A stretch of DNA of 12,548 nt. Origin: a virus (taxonomy: Duplodnaviria; Heunggongvirae; Uroviricota; Caudoviricetes). The position numbers were made by a program, and so were the translations under genes. Where the stretch lies: IMG/VR virus record IMGVR_UViG_2778261640_000001, positions 1-12,548 of that record. One strand, 5' to 3'. Shown here one piece after another: positions 1 through 12,548 of this stretch. A model generated the notes under the pieces. That model was given only the letters and a program-made list of their open reading frames with translations, searched no databases and was not told where the DNA came from. Each line of letters starts with the position of its first letter. Positions within the stretch are counted from its first letter, which is position 1.

Positions 1-411
1 ATGCCTGCCCCCGTCGTCCTGATCCTTGCGGCCGGGCGTGGAGAGCGCTTTCTCGCCTCCGGGGGAAATACCCATAAGTGTATCGGCTGGCGTCAGTCCC
101 CGGAGGTTGCGCCTTATCGCTGGCCATTTGAAGAAAACGGGAGAACTTTCGACCTTGCGATTGAACCGCAGATTACGACTAATGATCTGCGTCTGATGTT
201 GAGGCTGACTCTTGCCGGCGGAGGAATAACAATTGCCACTCAGGAAACTTTCAGGCCATATATTGAAAGCGGTAAGCTTGTATCGCTGCTTGATGACTTT
301 CTTCCACAATTTCCGGGCTTCTATCTGTATTTCCCACAGCGTCGCAATATTGCACCAAAGCTCCGCGCCCTGATTGACTACGTCAAAGAATGGCGGCAGC
401 AATTGGCTTAA
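1..411 (+). CDS. LysR-family transcriptional regulator, C-terminal part (5' end outside window); probably host flank
   Basis: ORF runs from the window edge to TAA at 409-411. From about residue 40 the translation reads like a LysR effector-binding domain C-terminus (RWPFEENGRTF, NDLRLMLRLTLAGGGITIATQETF, IESGKLVSLLDDF, FYLYFPQRRNIAPKLRALIDYVKEW). The first 40 residues are less typical. Confidence 0.55.
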   Translation: MPAPVVLILAAGRGERFLASGGNTHKCIGWRQSPEVAPYRWPFEENGRTFDLAIEPQITTNDLRLMLRLTLAGGGITIATQETFRPYIESGKLVSLLDDFLPQFPGFYLYFPQRRNIAPKLRALIDYVKEWRQQLA

Positions 412-1028: not shown

Positions 1029-3362
1029 TCAGGTTGTTGCAGGGTCGTCACATTTTGGCAGCCAGTCGCCGTAGCTTTCCTCTTTCAGCGTCAGGTTGGT
1101 CTGTATCCCCTGTTTGGTATGGCGCTTCTCGTAATTCAGCCCGTATTCCTTCAGCATCACCGGCAGCCCCAGCCCGAACATTTTCAGACTGAGTACATTC
1201 CGGTAGCCGTTTGCCTCCATGTAGGCCAGATAGGCGTGATAGAGGTATTTACGGTAGTTACGCGGGATGATACTGGCGTTCCCCATATACATGCCGCTGG
1301 TCTGCGGCAGGGTTTCCAGATAGCCGATAAAATCAAACGTCGGGTCGGCATCCCGTTTGATGTTCAGTGCCTCGTCTGAGTTCTGCTGGGACTGAAGCAG
1401 TGACCGGGCGAGCATCGGGTCGCTGAACTTCTGCATCAGGTGACGCACGATGACCGCCAGCTCGCGGGTGATTTTGTCCTTAAGCTGCGGGTCGCGCTCC
1501 TGCGGGGCTATCTGTTCCGGGAAGTGAATAATCACCCGCCGGCGTGACACGCCGCCGCTGCGGTCGGTGAAGCGCATCGGGTTATTGTTGACGGCCAGAA
1601 TCACCGCCGGGATATGCGTGGAGTACGCATCCCGGTATTTCGGGTCAACGGACACCGCATCGCCGCCGGTGATGGCCTTGAGTCCGGCTCCGTCGCCGCT
1701 CCATTTTTCCTGGTCCGGCAGGCGTATCAGTGAGAAGCCAGTTAACGCGGCACGTTCACGCGGGGATTCCAGCGTCTCGATGGTGGCCGACGTGGCGTTA
1801 TCCTCCCCGGCCAGCAGGGTGGCTATTTCGGCCATGATACTTTTGCCGCTGCCGCCGGGACCGGTCACCTCCAGAAAGAGCTGCCAGTCGTAGCGGTTTG
1901 CCAGCACCATAAACAGTGCGGCCAGAATCACGTCGCGTTTTTCCGCACGACCACCGGCGGCACGGTCAAGCCAGCGCCAGAACGCGGGAGCGTGGGTTTC
2001 CAGCGTTTCCCCTTCCACCGGCGGGGTGAAATCCACATCGCACAGGGTGCGCATCCAGTGTGACGGACTGTGCGGGTGGAACGAGCCGTTCTGCGTGTCG
2101 AGCACGCCGTTACGAAAGCCAATCAGGCGGCGGGAGGGGGCTTCCTGCTGCGGAATAATCAGCTTCAGGGTGTCCACCACGGAGGCCACCTTCCCGGAGG
2201 AGAACGGCGCGCGCAGCCGCTGAAACAGCCCGGCCACATCCCGGGCAAAGTCCTGTGGTGGCAGCACCTTCCAGACACCATTTTCATAGCGGGACAGAAG
2301 CTGGCCGTTGGCATCGACCGCGAGCGCCTCGCCGTAATGCTCATAGATACGCATGGCCTTTTCGCTGGTACTCATGGCGGAAAACTCCGCTTCGCTCATG
2401 GTGTCGAACGGGCTTTCAGCCGGTGGCCGGATGGCATCATAAATGGCCTTACGGGTGGCTTCCCCGCCGTACTGCGTGAAGGCATCATTCCAGTCACCGA
2501 AGACCGGCGGCAGGGCAACAACACCTTCACACGCATCTGCGGCTGCGGCGGCTTTTGTCTGGCCGTCACCGCTGAGGTCACGGTCAGCAGCAAGGACAAT
2601 CTGACAGGCCGGATGCTTCTGCCGGGCAAGGCTGGCCAGAGAAAGGAGGTTCACGGAAGAAAGCGCCACCATCACCGTTTCACCGGTCAGGTGATGTACG
2701 GTAAGTGCGGTCGCGTATCCCTCCGCTATCCACAGACGTTTTCCGGCCTGATTCTGTCCTTCAAGGGTGTGACAGGTGCCCCTGACCTGTCCGCCTTTCA
2801 GGGTGCGCTTACGGCCGTCAGCACTGATTAACTGAAGGTTAACCAGTTCGCCGCTGTCGTCATACAGTGGCACCACAAGGTCACCGGCGCGCCAGCTCAC
2901 GCCACCGGCTCTGTGTGTGCCGGTCAGCATCCGGCATTCCCGGCCGGGAAAGCCCTTGCGGGTCAGGTAGGCGTTACCGGTTCCGGGACGGGTTTTCGCC
3001 ATCAGGGTTTGTGCCAGTGCGGCGGCGTTCTTCCGGGCGGCTTCTGTTTCAGCACCGGCGGCAGCCGTCACTGCCGGGTCAGCCGGGGGCAGACTGCCGG
3101 TCACGGCAGCCACCTTTGTGGCCGCGTCGGACGGGGAAACACCAAACACCTTTTCAACCAGTTTCAGGCCGTCACCGGCACCACACTGATTGCAGTACCA
3201 GGTGCCGCGCCCCTCCCTGTCATCAAAACGGAAGCGGTCACTCCCGCCACAGACCGGACAGGGCTGATGACGGTTTTTCAGCACCTGAATCCCCAGCGCC
3301 GGGAGAATACGCGGCCAGTGACCGAGCGCATGGCTGACGGTGGCGGTTACGTTCATTTTCAT
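1029..3362 (-). CDS. alpha: P4 alpha-type primase-helicase / origin-binding replication protein
   Basis: 777-aa ORF. N-terminal zinc-ribbon primase signature (CPVCGGSDRFRFDD ... WYCNQCG), a Toprim-like acidic stretch (LAADRDLSGDGQ), Walker A GPGGSGKS and a long C-terminal domain. AGGAG sits 9 nt upstream of the ATG. Length equals recalled P4 alpha. Confidence 0.9.
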   Translation of the reverse strand: MKMNVTATVSHALGHWPRILPALGIQVLKNRHQPCPVCGGSDRFRFDDREGRGTWYCNQCGAGDGLKLVEKVFGVSPSDAATKVAAVTGSLPPADPAVTAAAGAETEAARKNAAALAQTLMAKTRPGTGNAYLTRKGFPGRECRMLTGTHRAGGVSWRAGDLVVPLYDDSGELVNLQLISADGRKRTLKGGQVRGTCHTLEGQNQAGKRLWIAEGYATALTVHHLTGETVMVALSSVNLLSLASLARQKHPACQIVLAADRDLSGDGQTKAAAAADACEGVVALPPVFGDWNDAFTQYGGEATRKAIYDAIRPPAESPFDTMSEAEFSAMSTSEKAMRIYEHYGEALAVDANGQLLSRYENGVWKVLPPQDFARDVAGLFQRLRAPFSSGKVASVVDTLKLIIPQQEAPSRRLIGFRNGVLDTQNGSFHPHSPSHWMRTLCDVDFTPPVEGETLETHAPAFWRWLDRAAGGRAEKRDVILAALFMVLANRYDWQLFLEVTGPGGSGKSIMAEIATLLAGEDNATSATIETLESPRERAALTGFSLIRLPDQEKWSGDGAGLKAITGGDAVSVDPKYRDAYSTHIPAVILAVNNNPMRFTDRSGGVSRRRVIIHFPEQIAPQERDPQLKDKITRELAVIVRHLMQKFSDPMLARSLLQSQQNSDEALNIKRDADPTFDFIGYLETLPQTSGMYMGNASIIPRNYRKYLYHAYLAYMEANGYRNVLSLKMFGLGLPVMLKEYGLNYEKRHTKQGIQTNLTLKEESYGDWLPKCDDPATT

Positions 3363-3832: not shown

Positions 3833-4288
3833 TTACAGATAATTGCGGTAACTGTTATCCGGGGTGGTTTCCGGGTCAGGCTCCATGCGGGGAATTTCCC
3901 GCCATTCCCGCGCCACCGGTGCCGCCCGGCTGACCGGAACAGGGGCCTGCGGGTAAATATCCAGATATTTTTCCCGCCATTTCTGTAATTCCGGGTCTCC
4001 GGCCATTTCTTTCAGTACCGCATGCCGGTTTACGGGGCTGCGTTTAAACAGGTCAGGACGGTCACAGGTAAATTCCCGCAGAAAACGCCCCAGCGGGATG
4101 TCTGTGGTGCGCCCGTCAGCGAGGATACGCACAAGGATACTGAATTTACGGCGGTACGGGTTCCAGACAATGTCCGGGCAGCGGTACGGCATTTCCCACG
4201 GAATACCGTCTTCCAGAATGCCGACCACGGCCACATCGGGAAAACCGGCAGAACGGTAAATCTCACCGGGCTGGGGAAAATCAAACAT
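3833..4288 (-). CDS. P4 orf151-like protein, function unknown
   Basis: 151-aa ORF with GGGGAGA upstream of the ATG. Its ATG overlaps the last codons of the upstream epsilon-like ORF, suggesting translational coupling. Length and position match P4 orf151. Confidence 0.65.
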   Translation of the reverse strand: MFDFPQPGEIYRSAGFPDVAVVGILEDGIPWEMPYRCPDIVWNPYRRKFSILVRILADGRTTDIPLGRFLREFTCDRPDLFKRSPVNRHAVLKEMAGDPELQKWREKYLDIYPQAPVPVSRAAPVAREWREIPRMEPDPETTPDNSYRNYL

Positions 4289-4568
4289 GCGTCCTGTCTC
4301 CCCGGTCTTTCTGCTGGGCGAGAAAATCGCGGCACAGGCCTTTGGCTTTCAGCTCATTCAGCACAAAATCAATATCTTCATTCAGGTAGCTGAAAATATG
4401 CGGAATGTAGAGCTGATGCAGGCCGGAGAGTTCACGGTGAATCAAATCACCCCCAACAAACTGGGATACGGCGCTGGCGCGGTTGAGCTTATGGTAAGCC
4501 TCAATGCTGAGGTGTTCACGGGCGTCATGACGCGCTGAGACGGTCTGAGGGGCTTTTTTATTACGCAC
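4281..4568 (-). CDS. epsilon: epsilon-like protein (P4 antirepressor position), 95 aa from a GTG start
   Basis: GTG at 4568-4566 is preceded by GGTGGTGGAGGTG and overlaps the kil stop. The track's longer 147-aa version would overlap kil out of frame and lacks a ribosome-binding site. Confidence 0.55.
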
Positions 4569-4758
4569 GGGACACCTCCACCACCGGCAGACGGGCAGCA
4601 AGGGAGAGCACATAGTCACGGACAAGGGAACGGCGGGCGCTGCGTTCATCACCGGCGACGGTGCGAAGCATACAGATACGGGGATGACGGTCTGCGCGAC
4701 GGACAGCCGCAAACACAAAGACAAATTCAGGGTGTGAGGGGGTAAGGGTTGTAGCCAT
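4561..4758 (-). CDS. kil: Kil-like 65-aa peptide, first translated gene downstream of PLE
   Basis: ATG at 4758-4756 is preceded by GGAGG at an 8-nt spacing and gives exactly 65 aa ([12 protein letters not shown]...VVEVSRA) to the TAA at 4563-4561. This is the 3' part of the longer eta frame. Confidence 0.6.
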
Positions 4759-5160
4759 GATGGCAGCCTCCGTTAGATAGCAGGTTACGCTATCGCCGGA
4801 GTTCTCACGCTCAATGGCGATAGCCCAGACGGGGGTGAGAATACCGGCTCTAACGGATACCGGCCAGCCCGGAGGCTGCCCCGCCTGAGCTACCATTGAC
4901 TCTGCGGCATAATGAGCGGACGCGGGCAGGATGCACGGAATGCCATCTGCACGACTGACCACACACCACACCATAATCTGGCGCTCTGTGGCGTTGATTG
5001 CGACACAAAAAAAGACGCATGGCGCGTCATATGTCGCCGTTAGATTGCTCGGGTTCTCACGCCCGGCTGCCGATTTTGCGGCAGCGGAAAAACTATATCC
5101 GCAAATGCCGGAAAAAGGCAAGCCAGAAAAAGGGACTTTTTGCAGAGCGGGCATCATCAT
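4561..5160 (-). CDS. eta: eta-like ORF (about 199 aa), same frame as kil, starting upstream of PLE and spanning the cI/seq region
   Basis: The in-frame ATGATGATG at 5160-5152 overlaps the vis stop. Starting at 5160 gives 199 aa. The frame stays open across seqA, the seqB region and seqC. The track's upstream start at 5205 lies inside vis. Confidence 0.4.
4770..4810 (-). promoter_or_regulatory. seqC-like target, complementary to seqB; overlaps the kil ribosome-binding site
   Basis: Minus strand reads gcgtgagaactccggcgatagcgtaacctgctatctaacgg. Its ends (gtgagaa ... tctaacgg) are complementary to the seqB candidate. Confidence 0.55.
4812..4900 (-). ncRNA. cI: CI-RNA-like immunity RNA; boundaries approximate, seqB core at 4835-4856
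   Basis: Minus-strand ccgttagagccggtattctcac (4856-4835) is complementary to both flanking elements. Exact ends cannot be set from sequence alone. Confidence 0.35.
5037..5062 (-). promoter_or_regulatory. seqA-like target, complementary to seqB, in the PLE leader
   Basis: Minus strand reads gcgtgagaacccgagcaatctaacgg, sharing gtgagaa and tctaacgg with seqC, both complementary to seqB. Confidence 0.55.
5092..5121 (-). promoter_or_regulatory. PLE-like sigma70 promoter of the leftward operon
   Basis: Minus strand -35 TTGCCT (5121-5116), 18-nt spacer, -10 TATAGT (5097-5092). The start would lie about 25 nt upstream of seqA. Confidence 0.5.
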
Positions 5161-5423
5161 GCGTCGTACCCCCGTTTGCGTCCGGCAATGCGCCCGGCCA
5201 TCCATGCGGTGACTTCTGAGTGCAGCCAGGCCACATTTTTACCGCCAAGACTCACCTGCGGCGGAAATTCCCCCTTACGGATGAGTTCATAGATGGTCGA
5301 GCGTGACAGGCCGCACAGGTGCATCACTTCCGGCAGACGTAAAAAACGCTCCTGCGTGATGTCCGGCAGCGGCATCAGTGGCGTCACAGGGGCGGGAGAC
5401 GGGGAAGAAAAAACAGCTTGCAT
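5157..5423 (-). CDS. vis: Vis-like AlpA-family helix-turn-helix regulator / excision factor
   Basis: 88-aa ORF with an AlpA-type motif ([44 protein letters not shown]). GAGG sits 8 nt upstream of the ATG. Length and position match P4 vis. Confidence 0.8.
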
Positions 5424-5525
5424 CGGGCTACCTCGTTAATGTCCATACAGCACCGGATAAGTCCGTCCGGCTTCGGGTAGCGCTTTATTTTGTGAATATT
5501 TTCAGCAGACGCAACAGGGGGGATT

Positions 5526-5543
5526 TGTTCCGGCAGCCTTACA
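5526..5543. promoter_or_regulatory. TGT-N12-ACA dyad, an Ogr/Delta-type activator site, upstream of vis (PLL-like late promoter)
   Basis: TGT (5526-5528), 12 nt, ACA (5541-5543), centred about 110 bp upstream of the vis ATG. Confidence 0.45.
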
Positions 5544-5570
5544 ATGCTTGTGTGTTTTTTGTTCATCTCC

Positions 5571-5600
5571 ACTTAAAGTCATTTAAAGCCACTTAAAGCA
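5571..5600. repeat. Three tandem 10-bp repeats (acttaaagtc / atttaaagcc / acttaaagca)
   Basis: Read directly between the PLL-side dyad and the ori iterons. Function unknown. Confidence 0.5.
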
Positions 5601-5702
5601 ATTCGTAATTTTTATAGTGAAATACAAATCGTTTTTTCTTATTCATTCCCGGCGAATTAATAAAAACAAACAGTAATAAACAGCACAAAAAGCCCATCAA
5701 CG

Positions 5703-5807
5703 GGTGAACAGTGGTGAACAGACGGTGAACAGTCATTACTGCGATTGTTCACCATTTAACTTACTGTATTACTTATCTTTTTTCTTATGGTGAACAGAGG
5801 TGAACAG
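5703..5807. other. ori: ori-like replication origin: six TGTTCACC-type iterons in direct and inverted orientation
   Basis: GGTGAACAG at 5703, 5713, 5724, 5789 and 5799, plus inverted TGTTCACC at 5746, the same octamer as in crr. Flanked by AAACAAACAGTAA direct repeats (about 5665 and 5821). Lies about 4.9 kb from crr. Confidence 0.7.
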
Positions 5808-8052: not shown

Positions 8053-9675
8053 TTAATTTATTTTTTTATAAAGGCCATCTAACCCAGGTTTCAAAAGAAA
8101 TTGAGATGGAGCCCCGTTCTTAAGATCACCTGAACCATTATACCGTTTCGTAGAATGCATTAGCATAATGCCTTTTCTTGCTCGTGTAATTCCTACGTAA
8201 TGAAGATTTATGCATTGCTGTTCATTTTCGAATACAACATCATAGCTTCCTTCTATGAAAACTCTTTTAGGCAAAATCCAATCATACAGATCCAAATGAA
8301 AAACAAAGTCAAACTCAAGACCTTTAGACTTATGTAACGTCATTATTTGTACTTCATCACTTCTAACATCCAAATAATTATTTTGCATCCTCGGAGTAAC
8401 TAATATCTCTGAAAGAGCGGACTTATGATGCTGCTCGATTTCAGTCCCTAAAAGAGTTACTACAATTTTATTTATTACGTCAATAAGAAAGGCATCTGTA
8501 ACACTTCTAACCTGCTTAATAGCCTTACGGATACGAGTAGCCTCGCTCCTTTTGACACTGCTTCCCAAAACCCCCTCCAAAATAGACTGAGCAGTTTTAT
8601 TTAAGTTATACCTGTAACATAATAAATCATTAACAAGACCAGAAACCTTACCACCAGCCTTTGTTAAATCATTATCCAAATAAGCCCTATTAGAAACAAC
8701 TAAATTATCAGAAACTAGCTCCGCGCAAGCATTGCTTCTTACCAATATAGCAATCTCCTTATTATCAGATATTGAAAATTTATTTTTTACATTATCAAGA
8801 ATTTCACCAATCCATTTAGCTATATCAATTTGATTGCCATCAACACATTTTCTATAAACAAAAATCTCATCACACGGAGCTAGTTGACATTCAAAATCTT
8901 TAATTCTATTGGCGTAATTTACTATAGATGGGTGACATCTGTGATTTACTGTAATTTCCTTATGACAGAAACCACTATCATTCATGAAATCTTTTAGTGA
9001 ATCCGAACTGCGGTGAGAATACAAATAAATTGATTGATCCAAATCACCAACGATAATAAGAGGCATCCCTAGCGTTGGTATGAACTTGAAAACCTGATGA
9101 GTAAAATAACCGGTATCCTGATACTCATCGACAAAAAAACCAATATACTTTGCCATTAAATACCGCTGACAAGAATATGATGTTCTAACTATATAAAAAG
9201 CCAAGTGAGGAAGGAAGTCTAAAATCAACATCCCCTTTAAATAAATATCCCTCAGAGAACCCATGCCCTCAAATGAAGTATTAGAATAAAAATCCACTCG
9301 GTCAAAGTACTTATTTGTCTTATCTTTTAATTCTTGAGAAAGATCTATATACTTTACTACTTCGAGAGCGCTTTCGTTTCTGCCCCATACTTGCCTTACA
9401 AAAGGTAATATTATTTCGTTAATGAAAAACTTATCAATAGTACCAAAGAAGCTAGAATTTAACTCTGCTCCCAATTTTCTACATCTGGATTTTAGCTCCT
9501 CGCTGGATTTATTCGTATATGATAACGCAACAACTCCCTGATAATCCTTGGAATGGGATAAACAGGCAGCAATCTTATGGACGAGTATTGTTGTTTTACC
9601 ACTTCCTGGGCATGCAGTTATAACCAGATTACCTTCGTAATCAATTGCATCTAACTGTTCCTTAGTTAGCTTCAT
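8053..9675 (-). CDS. gajB: UvrD/PcrA/Rep-like SF1 helicase, GajB-like partner of a class 2 OLD nuclease
   Basis: 540-aa ORF with all SF1 helicase motifs read by eye: I ACPGSGKTT, Ia ALSYTNKSSEEL, II FVDEYQDT, III IIVGDLDQSIY, IV VNHRCHPSIVNYAN, V IMTLHKSKGLEFDFVF, VI YVGITRARKG. ATGA overlap with the upstream gene and GAGGTGA ribosome-binding site. AT-rich. Confidence 0.75.
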   Translation of the reverse strand: MKLTKEQLDAIDYEGNLVITACPGSGKTTILVHKIAACLSHSKDYQGVVALSYTNKSSEELKSRCRKLGAELNSSFFGTIDKFFINEIILPFVRQVWGRNESALEVVKYIDLSQELKDKTNKYFDRVDFYSNTSFEGMGSLRDIYLKGMLILDFLPHLAFYIVRTSYSCQRYLMAKYIGFFVDEYQDTGYFTHQVFKFIPTLGMPLIIVGDLDQSIYLYSHRSSDSLKDFMNDSGFCHKEITVNHRCHPSIVNYANRIKDFECQLAPCDEIFVYRKCVDGNQIDIAKWIGEILDNVKNKFSISDNKEIAILVRSNACAELVSDNLVVSNRAYLDNDLTKAGGKVSGLVNDLLCYRYNLNKTAQSILEGVLGSSVKRSEATRIRKAIKQVRSVTDAFLIDVINKIVVTLLGTEIEQHHKSALSEILVTPRMQNNYLDVRSDEVQIMTLHKSKGLEFDFVFHLDLYDWILPKRVFIEGSYDVVFENEQQCINLHYVGITRARKGIMLMHSTKRYNGSGDLKNGAPSQFLLKPGLDGLYKKIN

Positions 9676-11372
9676 AATTCACCTCTAGCAATTTTCAGTG
9701 CATGTATTAGAGGTCTGGCTATATCTTTGCTCTTCAGTTCAGTTAAAAAAGCTTTTTTCTCTTTAATTAACTCACGCATACGTATAGCTTTTTTTCCTCT
9801 CAAATAATCAGCGGCATCATCTAGATTATCCTTACTTGCATAATCAAGAACATGCTTCGAAAAGTCATTAGCAAGATCTCCTTCAAGATCAAAAAAAGAT
9901 ATATAAACGCCGTTAGGATTTATTATTGGTGAAATGGTTCCCCACTTAGTATGCAAAGCTTTACTATCTATAGGAATACTTGAGTTTGGTTCTTTATTCT
10001 CTCCACACAGTGCTAACGCCCTATTTACACCAGCATATTGCCATTCATTCTTATGAGGTACTTTTGAAGCATCATTGTCTGTTCTTACGATCCAATTAAT
10101 ATTTAGAGCTGTTAATATTTTTCTATAAACTTCAAATTGGATACCATCAACAGAAAGAATGCTGATGTTATAATAATCAAGATCAATACTTAATGCTTTT
10201 GCTAATTCAGTGTAAAAAATCACCTCAGATGGTCCCTCGACCAAAAAAACCACGTTAGCAAAAAATGCCTCAGCAGGAATAATACTCATCCGGTAGCCCA
10301 TTCCATCCCATGCAGAGCTAATACAATCAGAACATCCATTACTTGCGGCTAGAGTCTCTCCATCATCATAGTATAGTTTTATGATTGAATCAGGTTTAAA
10401 ATTCACTGCAATTTGGGGTGAGTGGCTTGTAACGATTGCTTGGCCTGGAAGTTTATCGATTAAATAGGCCGCCAATTTTCTTTGCTGGTGAGGAAATAGA
10501 TGTGCTTCCGGTTCCTCTATACAATAGATCACTACTTCACTTTCAACATCATGCTCGCGAACACTTTTTGCTTTCCATAACGCAAGAAGGATTTGGTTAT
10601 TAAACCCATCGCCACCAAGCATTAGTTTCTTCCCATTTGTATTCGCACTTAATTCTAATTTCTCTATAAACTGGTCAATCCCTATTGCACCAGTATCAAG
10701 TTGAACAGTTAATCTATCATGAGTATAGGATAACTTTCTAAGTTCCTCGTTAAGCTCTTCTGTTGCTGATGCAACATAACTTATTCCTTTAACTTTTTCA
10801 TTTACTTCAGTAAGTAGCTTATTTAATTCAGTAAAAACCGCCCCATCATTTTCAGTATCCTTTTCACTACGAACTTCTTGCGCCAATCTTAAAAGATGCT
10901 TCTTTTCAATTTTAATGTATTTTTCAAGATCTCTTTGCGAATTTATATACCTTAGACTTAAACACTTTAAGTAAAATCTATTAGGAACCTCATCAAAATT
11001 GTTATGTTCATGACTAAGTAATATCTTGTAATCCATAGTTAATGATGAAGCAAGATACTTAATGTATGTTTCCCCTTCATCGCTAACATACCCTCCTAAT
11101 TTAGATATTACAGCATCTTCACTAACATCTGTAAACTTGATAGTGATTTCTATATTTTCAACCTGTTCACCTGTCGAATTTACATGAAAGTCATTGCTTT
11201 TTGGTTCTAGATCTAATTCAGATAAACTTTTATCAAGTAATAATCGAATGGCATATAATAGGTTGGTCTTTCCAACATCATTTGCACCTATAATCAAATT
11301 AGTTTCATTAAAATTAATAACAGCATCACAGTAATTCCTGAATCCTTTAATATAAACAGTTTCAATTCTCAT
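9672..11372 (-). CDS. gajA: OLD-family ABC-ATPase plus Toprim nuclease, GajA-like
   Basis: 566-aa ORF. Walker A GANDVGKTN near the N-terminus, Walker B / H-loop (VVIYCIEEPEAHLFP ... IVTSHSPQ), C-terminal Toprim motifs (VVFLVEGPSEV, WIVRTDNDAS). The ATG directly follows the int stop (TAAATG). AT-rich. Confidence 0.75.
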   Translation of the reverse strand: MRIETVYIKGFRNYCDAVINFNETNLIIGANDVGKTNLLYAIRLLLDKSLSELDLEPKSNDFHVNSTGEQVENIEITIKFTDVSEDAVISKLGGYVSDEGETYIKYLASSLTMDYKILLSHEHNNFDEVPNRFYLKCLSLRYINSQRDLEKYIKIEKKHLLRLAQEVRSEKDTENDGAVFTELNKLLTEVNEKVKGISYVASATEELNEELRKLSYTHDRLTVQLDTGAIGIDQFIEKLELSANTNGKKLMLGGDGFNNQILLALWKAKSVREHDVESEVVIYCIEEPEAHLFPHQQRKLAAYLIDKLPGQAIVTSHSPQIAVNFKPDSIIKLYYDDGETLAASNGCSDCISSAWDGMGYRMSIIPAEAFFANVVFLVEGPSEVIFYTELAKALSIDLDYYNISILSVDGIQFEVYRKILTALNINWIVRTDNDASKVPHKNEWQYAGVNRALALCGENKEPNSSIPIDSKALHTKWGTISPIINPNGVYISFFDLEGDLANDFSKHVLDYASKDNLDDAADYLRGKKAIRMRELIKEKKAFLTELKSKDIARPLIHALKIARGEL

Positions 11373-12548
11373 TTACATTTTCCTTAAAAATAACGTTGAA
11401 GAGAAAAAGTTCAACATTTTCCTTCTTTCTTCAATGAATGTTGCATGATTATATGTACCGCGAATTCTATTACTATCAACGTGAGCGAGCTGTAATTCAA
11501 TATATTGAGAATTAAAGCCAGCATCATGTAAAATAGTTGACATCATATGCCTAAATCCATGACCTGTAAGCCTGCCACCGTATCCAAGTCGCTTTATAAG
11601 CTGATTGATAGCGGCCTCACTCATTGGCTTACTCGGATCATTTCGCCCAGGAAAAACATAACGATAGTTGCCTGTCATTGTCTTGAGTTCATTGAGTAAA
11701 TCTAACGCCTGAGTAGACAATGGCACAAGATGCGGCCTGCGCATTTTCATCCTTTCAGCAGGAATTTCCCAAATAGCGTTATCCAGATCAAATTCTTGCC
11801 ATAATGCCGCGCGTAATTCGATGGTTCTCACGCCCGTAATCATCAGTAATTTCGTTGCTATCTGGACAATTTTACTCCCGGTGTAACTCTCTAAGGCACG
11901 CAGAAATTCGGGTATCTCATCAGCTTTTAAGAACGGGAAATGATTGGATTGATGCACTTCGAGAGCGCTGGAGAGATCCGCAGCAGGATTGTACTCCGCC
12001 CTACCTGTTGCAATTGCGTAGCGAAACACCTCGGAGCAACGCTGCCGCACTTTACGCATTTTCTCCAACGCACCACGTTTCTCAATTTTACGCAGTACGT
12101 TCAGCAGCTCTAGCGGTTTAATCTCTCCCACAGGCCTTGTTCCAACATAAGGAAAAATGTCGTTCTTAAACGCTTCCATGATGTCTGATGCGTATCCAGC
12201 TGACCATTTAGCAGATTTAAGTTGATGCCACTCTCTGGCGATCTTTTCGAAGGCGTTCTCTGACTCTGTTTGCAGAGCCAGCTTTTGCTCTTTTCGAACC
12301 TCACTAGGGTTCTTTCCTTCTGCCACAAGTTTTCGAGCTTCATCACGACGGGAACGAGCATCGGCAAGGGTGATCGTTGGGTAAACGCCAAGCGAGATCA
12401 TCTTGGGTTTACCGGCGTAGCGATAGCGGAACCGCCAGCTCTTGCTTCCATTAGGTTCTATAAGCAATGACAAGCCTTGCCCATCCCCAAGCGTATAGGG
12501 TTTATCTTCAGGCTTAGCGCGGCGAATCTGCATATCGTTTAAAGGCAT
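11373..12548 (-). CDS. int: P4-type tyrosine integrase; ATG at the window edge
   Basis: 391-aa ORF. N-terminus MPLNDMQIRRAKPEDKPY is typical of P4-family integrases. The C-terminal catalytic region carries HGFRHMMST and LAHVDSNRIRGTYNHA with the likely catalytic tyrosine. Confidence 0.85.
   Translation of the reverse strand: MPLNDMQIRRAKPEDKPYTLGDGQGLSLLIEPNGSKSWRFRYRYAGKPKMISLGVYPTITLADARSRRDEARKLVAEGKNPSEVRKEQKLALQTESENAFEKIAREWHQLKSAKWSAGYASDIMEAFKNDIFPYVGTRPVGEIKPLELLNVLRKIEKRGALEKMRKVRQRCSEVFRYAIATGRAEYNPAADLSSALEVHQSNHFPFLKADEIPEFLRALESYTGSKIVQIATKLLMITGVRTIELRAALWQEFDLDNAIWEIPAERMKMRRPHLVPLSTQALDLLNELKTMTGNYRYVFPGRNDPSKPMSEAAINQLIKRLGYGGRLTGHGFRHMMSTILHDAGFNSQYIELQLAHVDSNRIRGTYNHATFIEERRKMLNFFSSTLFLRKM

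Follow-up and report, generated by a model that had tools for sequence, protein, structure and literature searches.

The kil/eta region of a P4-type satellite prophage: a long frame coupled to vis that reads through the CI RNA cassette and contains the nested kil gene

Forti et al. 1999 reported the nested genes kil and eta of phage P4 and the part that they play in immunity-controlled termination, as summarised in PMC10111431. According to the same summary of the 1999 work, overexpression of P4 kil kills the cell, and translation of the kil region blocks termination at the immunity terminator; PMC10111431 also has P4 eta expressed from an upstream late promoter. C4-type RNAs are processed from the operon transcript and cause premature termination (PMC4825925). 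The logic of such an operon has been described for c4-icd-ant of P1 (PMC8198154), the Icd protein of which targets FtsZ (PMC11897509). Concerning Gifsy-1 IsrK, an RNA isoform governs access to a downstream ribosome-binding site (RBS) and translation-dependent readthrough (PMC4825925).

The stretch of DNA analysed here (12,548 nucleotides, referred to as the window) contains the genes vis, eta/kil, epsilon, orf151, orf106 and alpha, in this order, and a variable hotspot occupied by Gabija. The identity of the region to phage P4 is 97.6% at the DNA level; the Kil protein is 100% identical to P4 Kil, and Eta is 95% identical to P4 Eta, owing to a few further substitutions. A preliminary description had recognised the P4 immunity region and applied the published P4 model to it, and both identities, that of the DNA and that of Kil, fit this recognition. 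We take the window to carry, from a satellite prophage of the P4 type, the region of immunity and early genes, with CI-RNA-controlled termination at kil and eta readthrough on late transcripts, with a probability of about 0.85. The kil/eta arrangement is known textbook P4 biology and not a discovery, and the current understanding of the mechanism is unchanged by the present findings. The toxicity of Kil, as well as the distinction between immunity-sensitive transcription from PLE and immunity-insensitive transcription from the upstream late promoter, are carried over from P4 experiments and are presumed to hold here by analogy. About 18% of the complete genomes of E. coli contain P4-like satellites with this region.

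All the features considered below lie on the minus strand. The eta frame (4561..5160) is 600 nt long and runs from ATGATGATG to a TAA codon (4563-4561), with 199 sense codons and 0 internal stops. Within it lie PLE, the leader, seqA, the CI RNA, seqC and, in the same frame, kil; the claim of a single frame open from 5160 to 4561 across the immunity region was thus borne out. The same 600-nt CDS is called by NCBI PGAP in E. coli genomes in which the region is 100% identical. The frame extends open beyond the eta start, to about 5238, and has a further in-frame ATG at 5205, which was rejected as the eta start because in related loci the homologue of the 5160 ATG is preceded by an in-frame stop 1 or 2 codons away. 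The position of this stop, together with the overlap with the end of vis, supports ATG 5160 as the start of eta. The upstream gene, vis or orf88 (5157..5423), is an 88-aa ORF of the AlpA-type HTH class (Pfam Phage_AlpA, E=7e-21), the TGA stop of which (5159..5157) overlaps the eta ATG as ATGA.

The conservation of the long frame was counted in 49 loci retrieved through Kil alone. At least 110 codons were open upstream of kil in 47/49 loci, with the upstream frame shortened in 2/49, and the ATGA overlap of the vis stop with the start of the long frame was kept in 39/49, about 7/49 being without that arrangement. Over the 402 nt that precede kil, the other two frames contain 6 and 7 stops in the window, and 1–10 in relatives. 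Full-length Eta homologues occur in many Enterobacterales genera, with identities down to about 60%. In the eta-specific part, the lengths of the long indels (6, 9, 33 and 39 nt) are all divisible by 3. The gaps of 1 nt and 2 nt add up to multiples of three because only open-frame loci were aligned.

The last 65 codons of the frame begin, as had been proposed, at an internal ATG with a GGAGG element ahead of it. This gene, kil (4561..4758), has its ATG at 4758..4756, in the eta frame, separated by an 8-nt spacer from the GGAGG at 4771..4767. It encodes an Icd-like small protein, considered toxic by reference to P4, which matches NCBIfam NF033153 phage_ICD_like with 76.1 bits (cut-off 25) over residues 12–59 (model positions 1–48 of 48). 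By homology to P1 Icd, the target of Kil may be FtsZ. The kil ATG was present in 58/58 Kil-anchored loci, nearly all of them with GGAG at the same spacing, and the internal Met and the Kil sequence were conserved in 27 homologues. The nucleotide diversity of kil by codon position (0.082, 0.078 and 0.326) shows an excess at the third position, and therefore protein-level purifying selection on kil. Between the PLE-type promoter and kil, no other conserved ORF with an ATG and a Shine-Dalgarno sequence (SD) was found. The gene that follows, epsilon (4281..4568; helper derepression protein), encodes a 95-aa product (Pfam Derepression, positions 1–95 of 95). Its GTG start (4568..4566) does overlap the end of kil (TAA, 4563..4561) as previously indicated, the overlap being 8 nt. 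The epsilon start of relatives is either an ATG at the same position (ATGCATAA) or part of an ATGA overlap, and the kil stop overlaps the start of the next gene in the window, in relatives and in N15.

Concerning the start of transcription, the only promoter-like match within 4200–5800 is a PLE-type sigma-70 promoter at 5092..5121 (TTGCCT, 18 nt, TATAGT), located inside eta, with the eta ATG at 5160 lying upstream of the -35 hexamer at 5121. Its 98% identity to P4 suggests that it is the P4 PLE. It is followed by a putative untranslated leader (5008..5085; "SeqA RNA", IsrK-like) with two hairpins, seqA and an intrinsic-terminator-like hairpin plus U-run (5028..5014 and the T-run). This leader matched two Rfam models, isrK (72.0 bits, gathering 50) and c4-a1b1 (49.5 bits, gathering 46.7). 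The sequence a1 (5054..5060; GTGAGAA) lies in the loop of leader hairpin 2, and the seqA core (5037..5044) is TCTAACGG, TTCACAGG in P4. The CI immunity RNA (4813..4900) belongs to the C4 antisense RNA family, with a full-length match to Rfam RF01695 (clan CL00128; model 1–87 of 87; 75.2 bits, gathering 45; E=1.4e-13). It contains seqB (4849..4857; TCCGTTAGA, TCCTGTGAA in P4) in the 12-nt loop of hairpin 2, and a′ (4835..4841; TTCTCAC) in the single-stranded stretch 3′ of that hairpin, complementary to both a1 and a2. The second GTGAGAA, a2 (4802..4808), lies between the CI RNA and seqC, and is displayed in the loop of a conserved hairpin (4789..4824) in which the CI 3′ arm GCTATCGCC (4824..4816) pairs with GGCGATAGC (4797..4789), as an alternative to the CI basal stem.

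The pairings were evaluated by explicit counts of covariation, used instead of RNA duplexfold runs of the whole CI RNA against 40–50-nt targets, in which composite pairings were dominated by flanks and cognate and non-cognate combinations were poorly separated. The targets seqA, seqC, a1 and a2, which flank the CI RNA gene on both sides, gave 96–100% of cells paired, with scores reached by 0/500 shuffles. For a1 with a′, 100% of cells were paired and 6/7 pairs were compensatory (score 0.866 versus 0.263 for shuffles); for a2 with a′, the figures were 100% and 6/7 (0.854 versus 0.256), and for seqA with seqB, 100% and 6/8 (0.800 versus 0.220). The hairpin at 4789..4824 was paired in 98.9% of cells, with 3 compensatory pairs (score 0.294 versus 0.203, 0/500 shuffles).

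The relation of seqC to the kil SD deserves separate consideration. seqC (4762..4777; TCTAACGGAGGCTGCC) contains at its 5′ side 9 nt (the core, 4777..4769) that match the CI-RNA loop TCCGTTAGA (4857..4849) with perfect complementarity and take in the GGA of the SD. The 3′ part of seqC (4771..4762) is likewise perfectly complementary to GGCAGCCTCC (4880..4871), located in the CI stem base and in hairpin 1 (5′ arm and loop). The latter sequence is complementary to the SD plus spacer GGAGGCTGCC both in the window and in P4, the hairpin-1 complementarity pair being GGCAGCCUCC/GGAGGCUGCC. The covariation of seqB with seqC was clear-cut: 95.9% of cells paired, 6/9 pairs compensatory, and a score of 0.693 versus 0.201 for shuffles (0/500) and at most 0.16 for slid controls. 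It extends over 9 specificity classes, and the helix reaches the GGA of the SD (alignment columns 128–130). On the other hand, the pairing of CI 4880..4871 with the SD and spacer ("GGctgcc") was present in 94.3% of cells over 51 distinct sequences, but with 0 compensatory changes, and it is broken in three loci (L032, L036 and L048) where the CI side changed and the target did not; pairing of the full SD by the hairpin-1 arm is for these reasons taken as possible and not as established. The preliminary proposal that seqC overlaps the kil RBS is supported: a C4-type target overlaps the RBS of the first gene, with a covarying helix that includes the GGA of GGAGG; the rest of the SD is complementary to the CI RNA without support from covariation. 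The abstract of the 1999 paper of Forti is said to contain already a remark of the original authors on the overlap of seqC with the RBS.

Matched changes of 4 nt in each of seqA, seqB and seqC (TCTAACGG/CCGTTAGA here, TTCACAGG/CCTGTGAA in P4) distinguish the window from P4, and would predict an immunity specificity different from that of P4. The b sequences thus differ between window and P4, and the a sequences are shared. In the sequences examined there are at least nine classes of b, and about 5–6 variants of a as judged by eye in alignments. A single metagenome contig (L063) combines P4-type seqA and seqC with window-type seqB. It was not accepted as a genuine mismatched locus, being indistinguishable from an assembly chimera; in the nearest complete genome, all three sequences match. 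The matched substitutions provide a simple sequence-based assignment of P4-like satellites to immunity groups.

A mechanism can be proposed along the lines of the P4 model. Constitutive transcripts from PLE would begin downstream of the eta ATG, and they would therefore comprise an untranslated leader (a1, seqA and the terminator hairpin), the CI RNA, a2 and seqC, with kil as the first translatable gene. The CI RNA would be excised from the same transcript, and would pair with two pairs of targets, a1/seqA and a2/seqC, through its two single-stranded patches (the seqB loop of hairpin 2 and a′ just 3′ of it). The seqB–seqC helix would enter the kil SD, and might extend over all of it, and therefore ribosomes would be excluded from kil. 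A candidate Rho loading (rut) region is located at 4696..4785, C-rich and G-poor over the kil start, where the C/G ratio is 2.0–2.7 (60-nt windows), the highest in 4250–5100. If this kil start were left bare, Rho could terminate transcription before epsilon, orf151 and alpha, and both the toxic Kil and the prophage genes for replication would stay silent. The late promoter upstream would give transcripts that include vis, and ribosomes ending vis would re-initiate at the ATGA and translate eta through the leader, CI and seqC into the kil frame. This translation would stop the RNA elements from pairing or folding and would shield the RNA from Rho, and therefore the late transcript would ignore immunity. 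At the end of the frame, the overlap of the Kil stop with the epsilon start would hand the ribosomes on.

In this mechanism, occlusion of the RBS, rather than pairing as such, is probably the causal step in termination. Alternatively, termination could follow directly from the CI–seqC pairing, by way of RNA structure, Rho loading or a pausing polymerase; the kil RBS would then be overlapped incidentally, and kil translation would be lost as a consequence. The same CI patches pair upstream with a1/seqA, where there is no RBS, beside the terminator-like hairpin; since seqA acts upstream of any RBS, pairing can promote termination without blocking translation. Direct termination also agrees with a covarying helix that holds just 3 nt of the SD, and with the target core of N15, which ends 3 nt before its AGGA SD. 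However, the target is immediately 5′ of the SD or within it in all P4-like loci, and in N15 it adjoins the SD of the icd homologue. Moreover, the c4 RNA of P1 reportedly acts as a translational repressor of icd, in work attributed to Biere, Citron and Schuster in 1992. The P4 experiments, in the account given by PMC10111431, point in the same direction, as translation of the region prevents termination. Considering all these points, direct termination seems unlikely, and we continue to regard RBS occlusion as the probable causal step.

A different matter is whether the eta-specific 134 codons encode a protein domain. Unlike kil, they have no codon-position signature of protein selection: the nucleotide diversity by codon position was flat in all five eta-specific segments (e.g. 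0.18, 0.21 and 0.19 over CI), and the third-position excess looked for in these five segments as protein-level constraint on Pfam PF10554 Phage_ASH was not found, compared to a four-fold excess in kil. This argues against Eta being a true two-domain protein, with N-terminal 134 residues (Pfam "Ash") having their own function, e.g. in regulation, and the RNA elements merely embedded. In favour of such a protein, Phage_ASH matches Eta residues 22–146 (95.1 bits versus gathering 26, E=4e-27), PHROG 6928 is labelled "transcriptional repressor", full-length homologues are widespread, and PMC10111431 counts eta among the "Bro network" protein genes. Nevertheless, the conserved residues of Eta coincide with RNA/DNA elements, its variable di- and tripeptides are the specificity patches of seqA, seqB and seqC, and short Eta forms have lost a stretch of 13–16 residues. 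The AlphaFold2 model (mean pLDDT 35.7; 23–43 for residues 1–134) points the same way, as weak evidence from a shallow alignment, and the former "cI/ash protein" idea of P4 was superseded by the RNA (PMC4825925 and PMC10111431). A two-domain Eta appears quite improbable. It is barely conceivable that the long frame merely results from base composition and gene calling, with translation confined to kil and "eta" being no gene. The G+C-rich window does contain spurious ORFs of 150–250 codons elsewhere, e.g. 2070..2831 opposite alpha, and the lack of protein-level selection in the eta-specific part would agree with this; but the frame is open in 47 of the 49 independently retrieved loci, across many genera and up to about 40% divergence, the several indels are every one in phase or compensated, the ATGA coupling to vis is conserved, and P4 work has eta expressed from the upstream late promoter (PMC10111431).

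It seems reasonable, and to us somewhat probable, to interpret the eta-specific 134 codons as a "translated RNA cassette" and not a protein domain, the names Phage_ASH family, "Ash family protein" and "transcriptional repressor" being shadows of RNA conservation. To this interpretation belongs a two-part (a, b) immunity address code, shuffled among Enterobacterales, of which the window would be a b-only variant of P4. If the translated-cassette reading is true, selection would keep only an open frame coupled to vis, by which ribosomes on late transcripts erase immunity. Concerning annotation, the usual labels of the region are wrong: RefSeq P4 still has a 137-aa "transcriptional repressor", and PGAP names the whole frame "Icd-like". 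The correct annotation is a long translated frame, plus a nested toxic Kil/Icd gene, plus an embedded CI RNA with its targets. Annotated in this way, the region explains how P4-like satellites silence replication and toxin, and how late transcription escapes.

Compared to the known systems, the window is closest to P4 (Forti et al. 1999 J Bacteriol 181:5225; Sabbattini et al. 1995; Briani et al. 2000), with the same gene order, promoter, leader, CI RNA and layout of seqA, seqB and seqC, the same ATGA coupling to vis and the same GTG overlap with epsilon. The differences are the 4-nt changes in seqA, seqB and seqC, the 95% identity of Eta and the hotspot, where P4 has gop/beta/cII in place of Gabija. 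The immI operon of P1/P7 (c4 antisense RNA, a1b1, a2b2, icd and ant) belongs to the same RNA clan, the C4 and c4-a1b1 models matching the window. It shares with the window the bipartite a/b targets on both sides of the RNA gene, and a downstream target located at the RBS of a gene of the Icd family, the stop of which is coupled to the gene that follows. A tblastn search with Kil did not recover P1 Icd at E<=1e-3, and therefore the relationship with P1 is at the level of NCBIfam/Rfam family models only. Unlike the window, P1 is devoid of an in-frame long ORF such as eta, coupled to the upstream gene and reading through the RNA cassette, and its downstream genes are antirepressor genes, whereas those of the window are derepression and replication genes.

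The linear plasmid-prophages N15 and PY54 (CA RNA/icd/antirepressor) have an IsrK-like leader, a C4-family RNA and a Kil homologue (44–50% identity) in the same order as the window, with a target adjoining the SD and an icd stop that forms ATGA with the next gene. However, the open icd frame of N15 (a 100-aa ORF) reaches back no further than the start of the C4 RNA, without crossing the leader, and it is not coupled to an upstream gene. The N15 target core ends before the SD, while that of the window ends inside it. Finally, with respect to the Gifsy-1 IsrK/orf45-anrP system of Salmonella, the window leader (5085..5008) matches the isrK model, but the roles of the RNAs are opposite: IsrK acts positively and in trans, opening the orf45 RBS, whereas the C4-type RNA of the window would act negatively.

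The immunity region had been described preliminarily as a single open frame whose last 65 codons, starting at an internal ATG, would constitute kil. The long minus-strand frame (eta) was indeed found to be stop-free from ATGATGATG at 5160 to the TAA at 4563-4561, encoding 199 residues, and the internal in-frame ATG at 4758 was confirmed, with GGAGG at 4771-4767 and an 8-nt spacer. The same holds for the claimed overlap of epsilon with the kil stop, with the GTG (4568) 8 nt ahead of the long frame's end. The Kil protein shows 100% identity to that of P4 and matches the NCBIfam model "host cell division inhibitor Icd-like" (76 bits, cut-off 25), while the 95-residue epsilon product is an end-to-end match to the Pfam Derepression family. 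The eta frame is also open for about 26 codons 5' of 5160, with another ATG at 5205. Position 5160 is nevertheless the correct start, because most relatives have the frame closed 1-2 codons before the homologous ATG, because in 39/49 loci this ATG forms an ATGA overlap with the stop codon of the AlpA-type gene upstream, and because PGAP (NCBI) annotates the same 600-nt CDS in E. coli genomes 100% identical over the region. Inside eta, downstream of its ATG, lies a sigma-70-like promoter (TTGCCT-18-TATAGT, 5121-5092, minus strand), the sole such site in 4200-5800, followed by a terminator-like hairpin with a U-run (5028-5007, minus strand).

In order not to depend on P4 homology alone, 58 loci were retrieved from one-genome-per-species contigs with the Kil part only, so that the state of the upstream frame was no selection criterion. 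The ATG at the Kil start was present in 58/58 loci, with GGAG at equal distance in nearly all. Of the 49 sequences that extend 700 nt or more upstream, 47 had at least 110 open codons 5' of kil, and the other two reading frames contained 1-10 stops over the same 402 nt. The long indels of the eta-specific part measure 6, 9, 33 and 39 nt; gaps of 1 and 2 nt add up to multiples of three, since the aligned loci were only those keeping the frame open. Predicted full-length Eta homologues of 182-201 aa, down to about 60% identity, occur in Salmonella, Citrobacter, Klebsiella, Cronobacter, Edwardsiella, Kosakonia and other genera, and the internal Met was invariant across 27 aligned homologues. The nested arrangement has therefore been kept far beyond chance expectation. 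Among the Kil-anchored loci, L013 and L014 have a shortened upstream frame, and L017 and L058 are without the early ATG; these four may be decaying elements or users of other start codons.

Concerning the immunity RNA, Rfam places the C4 antisense RNA family (the CI RNA of P4) at 4900-4813 (75.2 bits), an IsrK-like leader at 5085-5008 and the "a1,b1 targets of C4" family at 5098-5046, all on the minus strand. Pairing of CI RNA with seqA, upstream of CI, and with seqC, downstream, leads to termination (PMC4825925). The string tctaacGGAGGctgcc, designated seqC, was located at 4777-4762 (minus strand). The loop of CI hairpin 2 (seqB) pairs with 9 nt ending in the GGA of the Shine-Dalgarno (SD) sequence, with 95.9% of base-pair x sequence cells paired (55 sequences, 51 distinct), compensatory changes in 6/9 pairs, and a covariation score of 0.693 versus 0.201 in shuffles (reached by 0/500) and at most 0.16 with the partner slid. 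Nine specificity classes were found. The seqB-seqC helix is therefore real and extends into the kil ribosome-binding site. Within the SD, the covarying helix covers the GGA, and the rest is without compensatory support. The remainder of the proposed seqC (GGctgcc) is perfectly complementary to the GGCAGCC of CI, and this pairing is maintained in 94% of cells, but with compensatory changes in 0 pairs, and in three loci the CI side is altered with hairpin 1 intact and the target unaltered. Full occlusion of the SD by CI is for this reason plausible rather than demonstrated. Immunity control of kil translation was reportedly proposed by Forti et al.

A second complementarity covaries independently. 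The single-stranded CI patch TTCTCAC (4841-4835) is complementary to GTGAGAA in the leader hairpin loop (5060-5054) and to a second GTGAGAA between CI and seqC (4808-4802), all on the minus strand; in both pairings 100% of cells are paired and 6/7 pairs are compensatory. The seqA/seqB pairing is equally good. Thus, the CI targets are bipartite on both sides, resembling the phage P1 targets a1b1 and a2b2. The second GTGAGAA is displayed in the loop of a conserved minus-strand hairpin formed by the CI 3' arm (4824-4816) and 4797-4789 (paired in 98.9% of cells, with 3 covarying pairs). This hairpin is an alternative to the CI basal stem, competing with the mature CI fold, and it may have a role in processing or serve as a switch.

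In eta, residues 22-146 match the Pfam model Phage_ASH. Across the three codon positions, nucleotide diversity was 0.082/0.078/0.326 in kil and level in every one of five eta-specific segments. The conserved Eta "residues" map onto RNA and promoter elements, and where its di- and tripeptides vary, they are in-frame readings of the specificity patches. AlphaFold2 (43-sequence alignment) gave, as weak evidence, pLDDT of 23-43 over residues 1-134 and 43-60 over the Kil part. On the simplest interpretation, selection acts on the translation of the eta-specific stretch, not on its amino-acid sequence. This fits the conclusion of Forti et al. 1999 (J Bacteriol 181:5225), as summarised in PMC10111431, that Eta translation prevents termination; full-length Eta is translated, according to the same summary, only when an upstream late promoter is active. 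Database labels over 4561-5160 are misleading. RefSeq P4 (NC_001609 8168-8584) annotates a 137-aa "transcriptional repressor" that is the old cI/ash ORF, corresponding to the C-terminal portion of the eta frame; both Pfam Phage_ASH and PHROG 6928 are models of the translated RNA cassette; and PGAP names the whole 199-aa frame "Icd-like".

The overlap between the kil stop and the next start (4561-4568 in the window, equivalent sites in the loci L002-L059 and L061) is conserved in three forms: GTGCGTAA in the window and P4, ATGCATAA, and ATGA in most genera and in N15. Its conservation suggests that kil is translationally coupled to the downstream gene. The C-rich, G-poor stretch 4785-4696 (C/G ratio 2-2.7) is a plausible Rho entry site, which would be exposed if kil were untranslated.

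Compared to satellite phage P4, window positions 4300-5700 are 97.6% identical, and the order vis/orf88, long frame, epsilon, orf151, orf106, alpha (777 aa), with sid, delta and psu on the other side, is the same. Of about 24 differences within 691 nt, 12 form three matched 4-nt patches in seqA (5037-5044), seqB (4849-4856) and seqC (4770-4777), all on the minus strand: seqA and seqC read TCTAACGG in the window and TTCACAGG in P4, while seqB reads CCGTTAGA and CCTGTGAA, respectively. The "a" patch is the same in both. These matched changes predict that the element would be heteroimmune to P4 with a common "a" patch. Among heteroimmune relatives of P4, compensating changes are described for retronphage phiR73. 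In a metagenome contig (L063 1501-2100; ENA k119_654), seqA and seqC are P4-type and seqB is window-type, so that CI and its targets would be mismatched within this contig; compared with the nearest complete E. coli genome (L064), only the seqB patch and one SNP differ. Either natural recombination or a chimeric assembly accounts for the contig.

Another difference from P4 concerns the variable hotspot between psu and integrase, where the window carries a complete Gabija defence system (8053-11372, minus strand; GajA 11372..9675, PADLOC E=4e-261; GajB 9675..8056, E=3e-224) and P4 has gop/beta/cII. The window begins within a fragment of a LysR-type gene (1-411, plus strand), and its other end coincides exactly with the start codon (ATG) of a 391-aa tyrosine integrase (11373-12548, minus strand). 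ARAGORN found no tRNA genes across the whole window, so the attachment-site tRNA, if any, lies outside it.

The P4 kil/eta interpretation is supported by the identity to P4, the conserved nested frames and the covarying seqB-seqC helix; it is a correct recognition of the published P4 system in a near-identical relative. Since the system was already known, the locus adds little, its novelty residing in the evidence for an eta-specific part translated yet not protein-constrained, a two-part address code over many specificity classes, and the b-only divergence from P4. N15 and PY54 share with the window its leader, its C4-type RNA and a Kil/Icd homologue; their target lies beside the SD, and their icd stop overlaps the start of the next gene. 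The icd frame of N15 stays open back to the RNA start only and is uncoupled from any upstream gene. The vis-coupled eta frame is therefore the P4-specific addition to an older C4-icd module common with P1.
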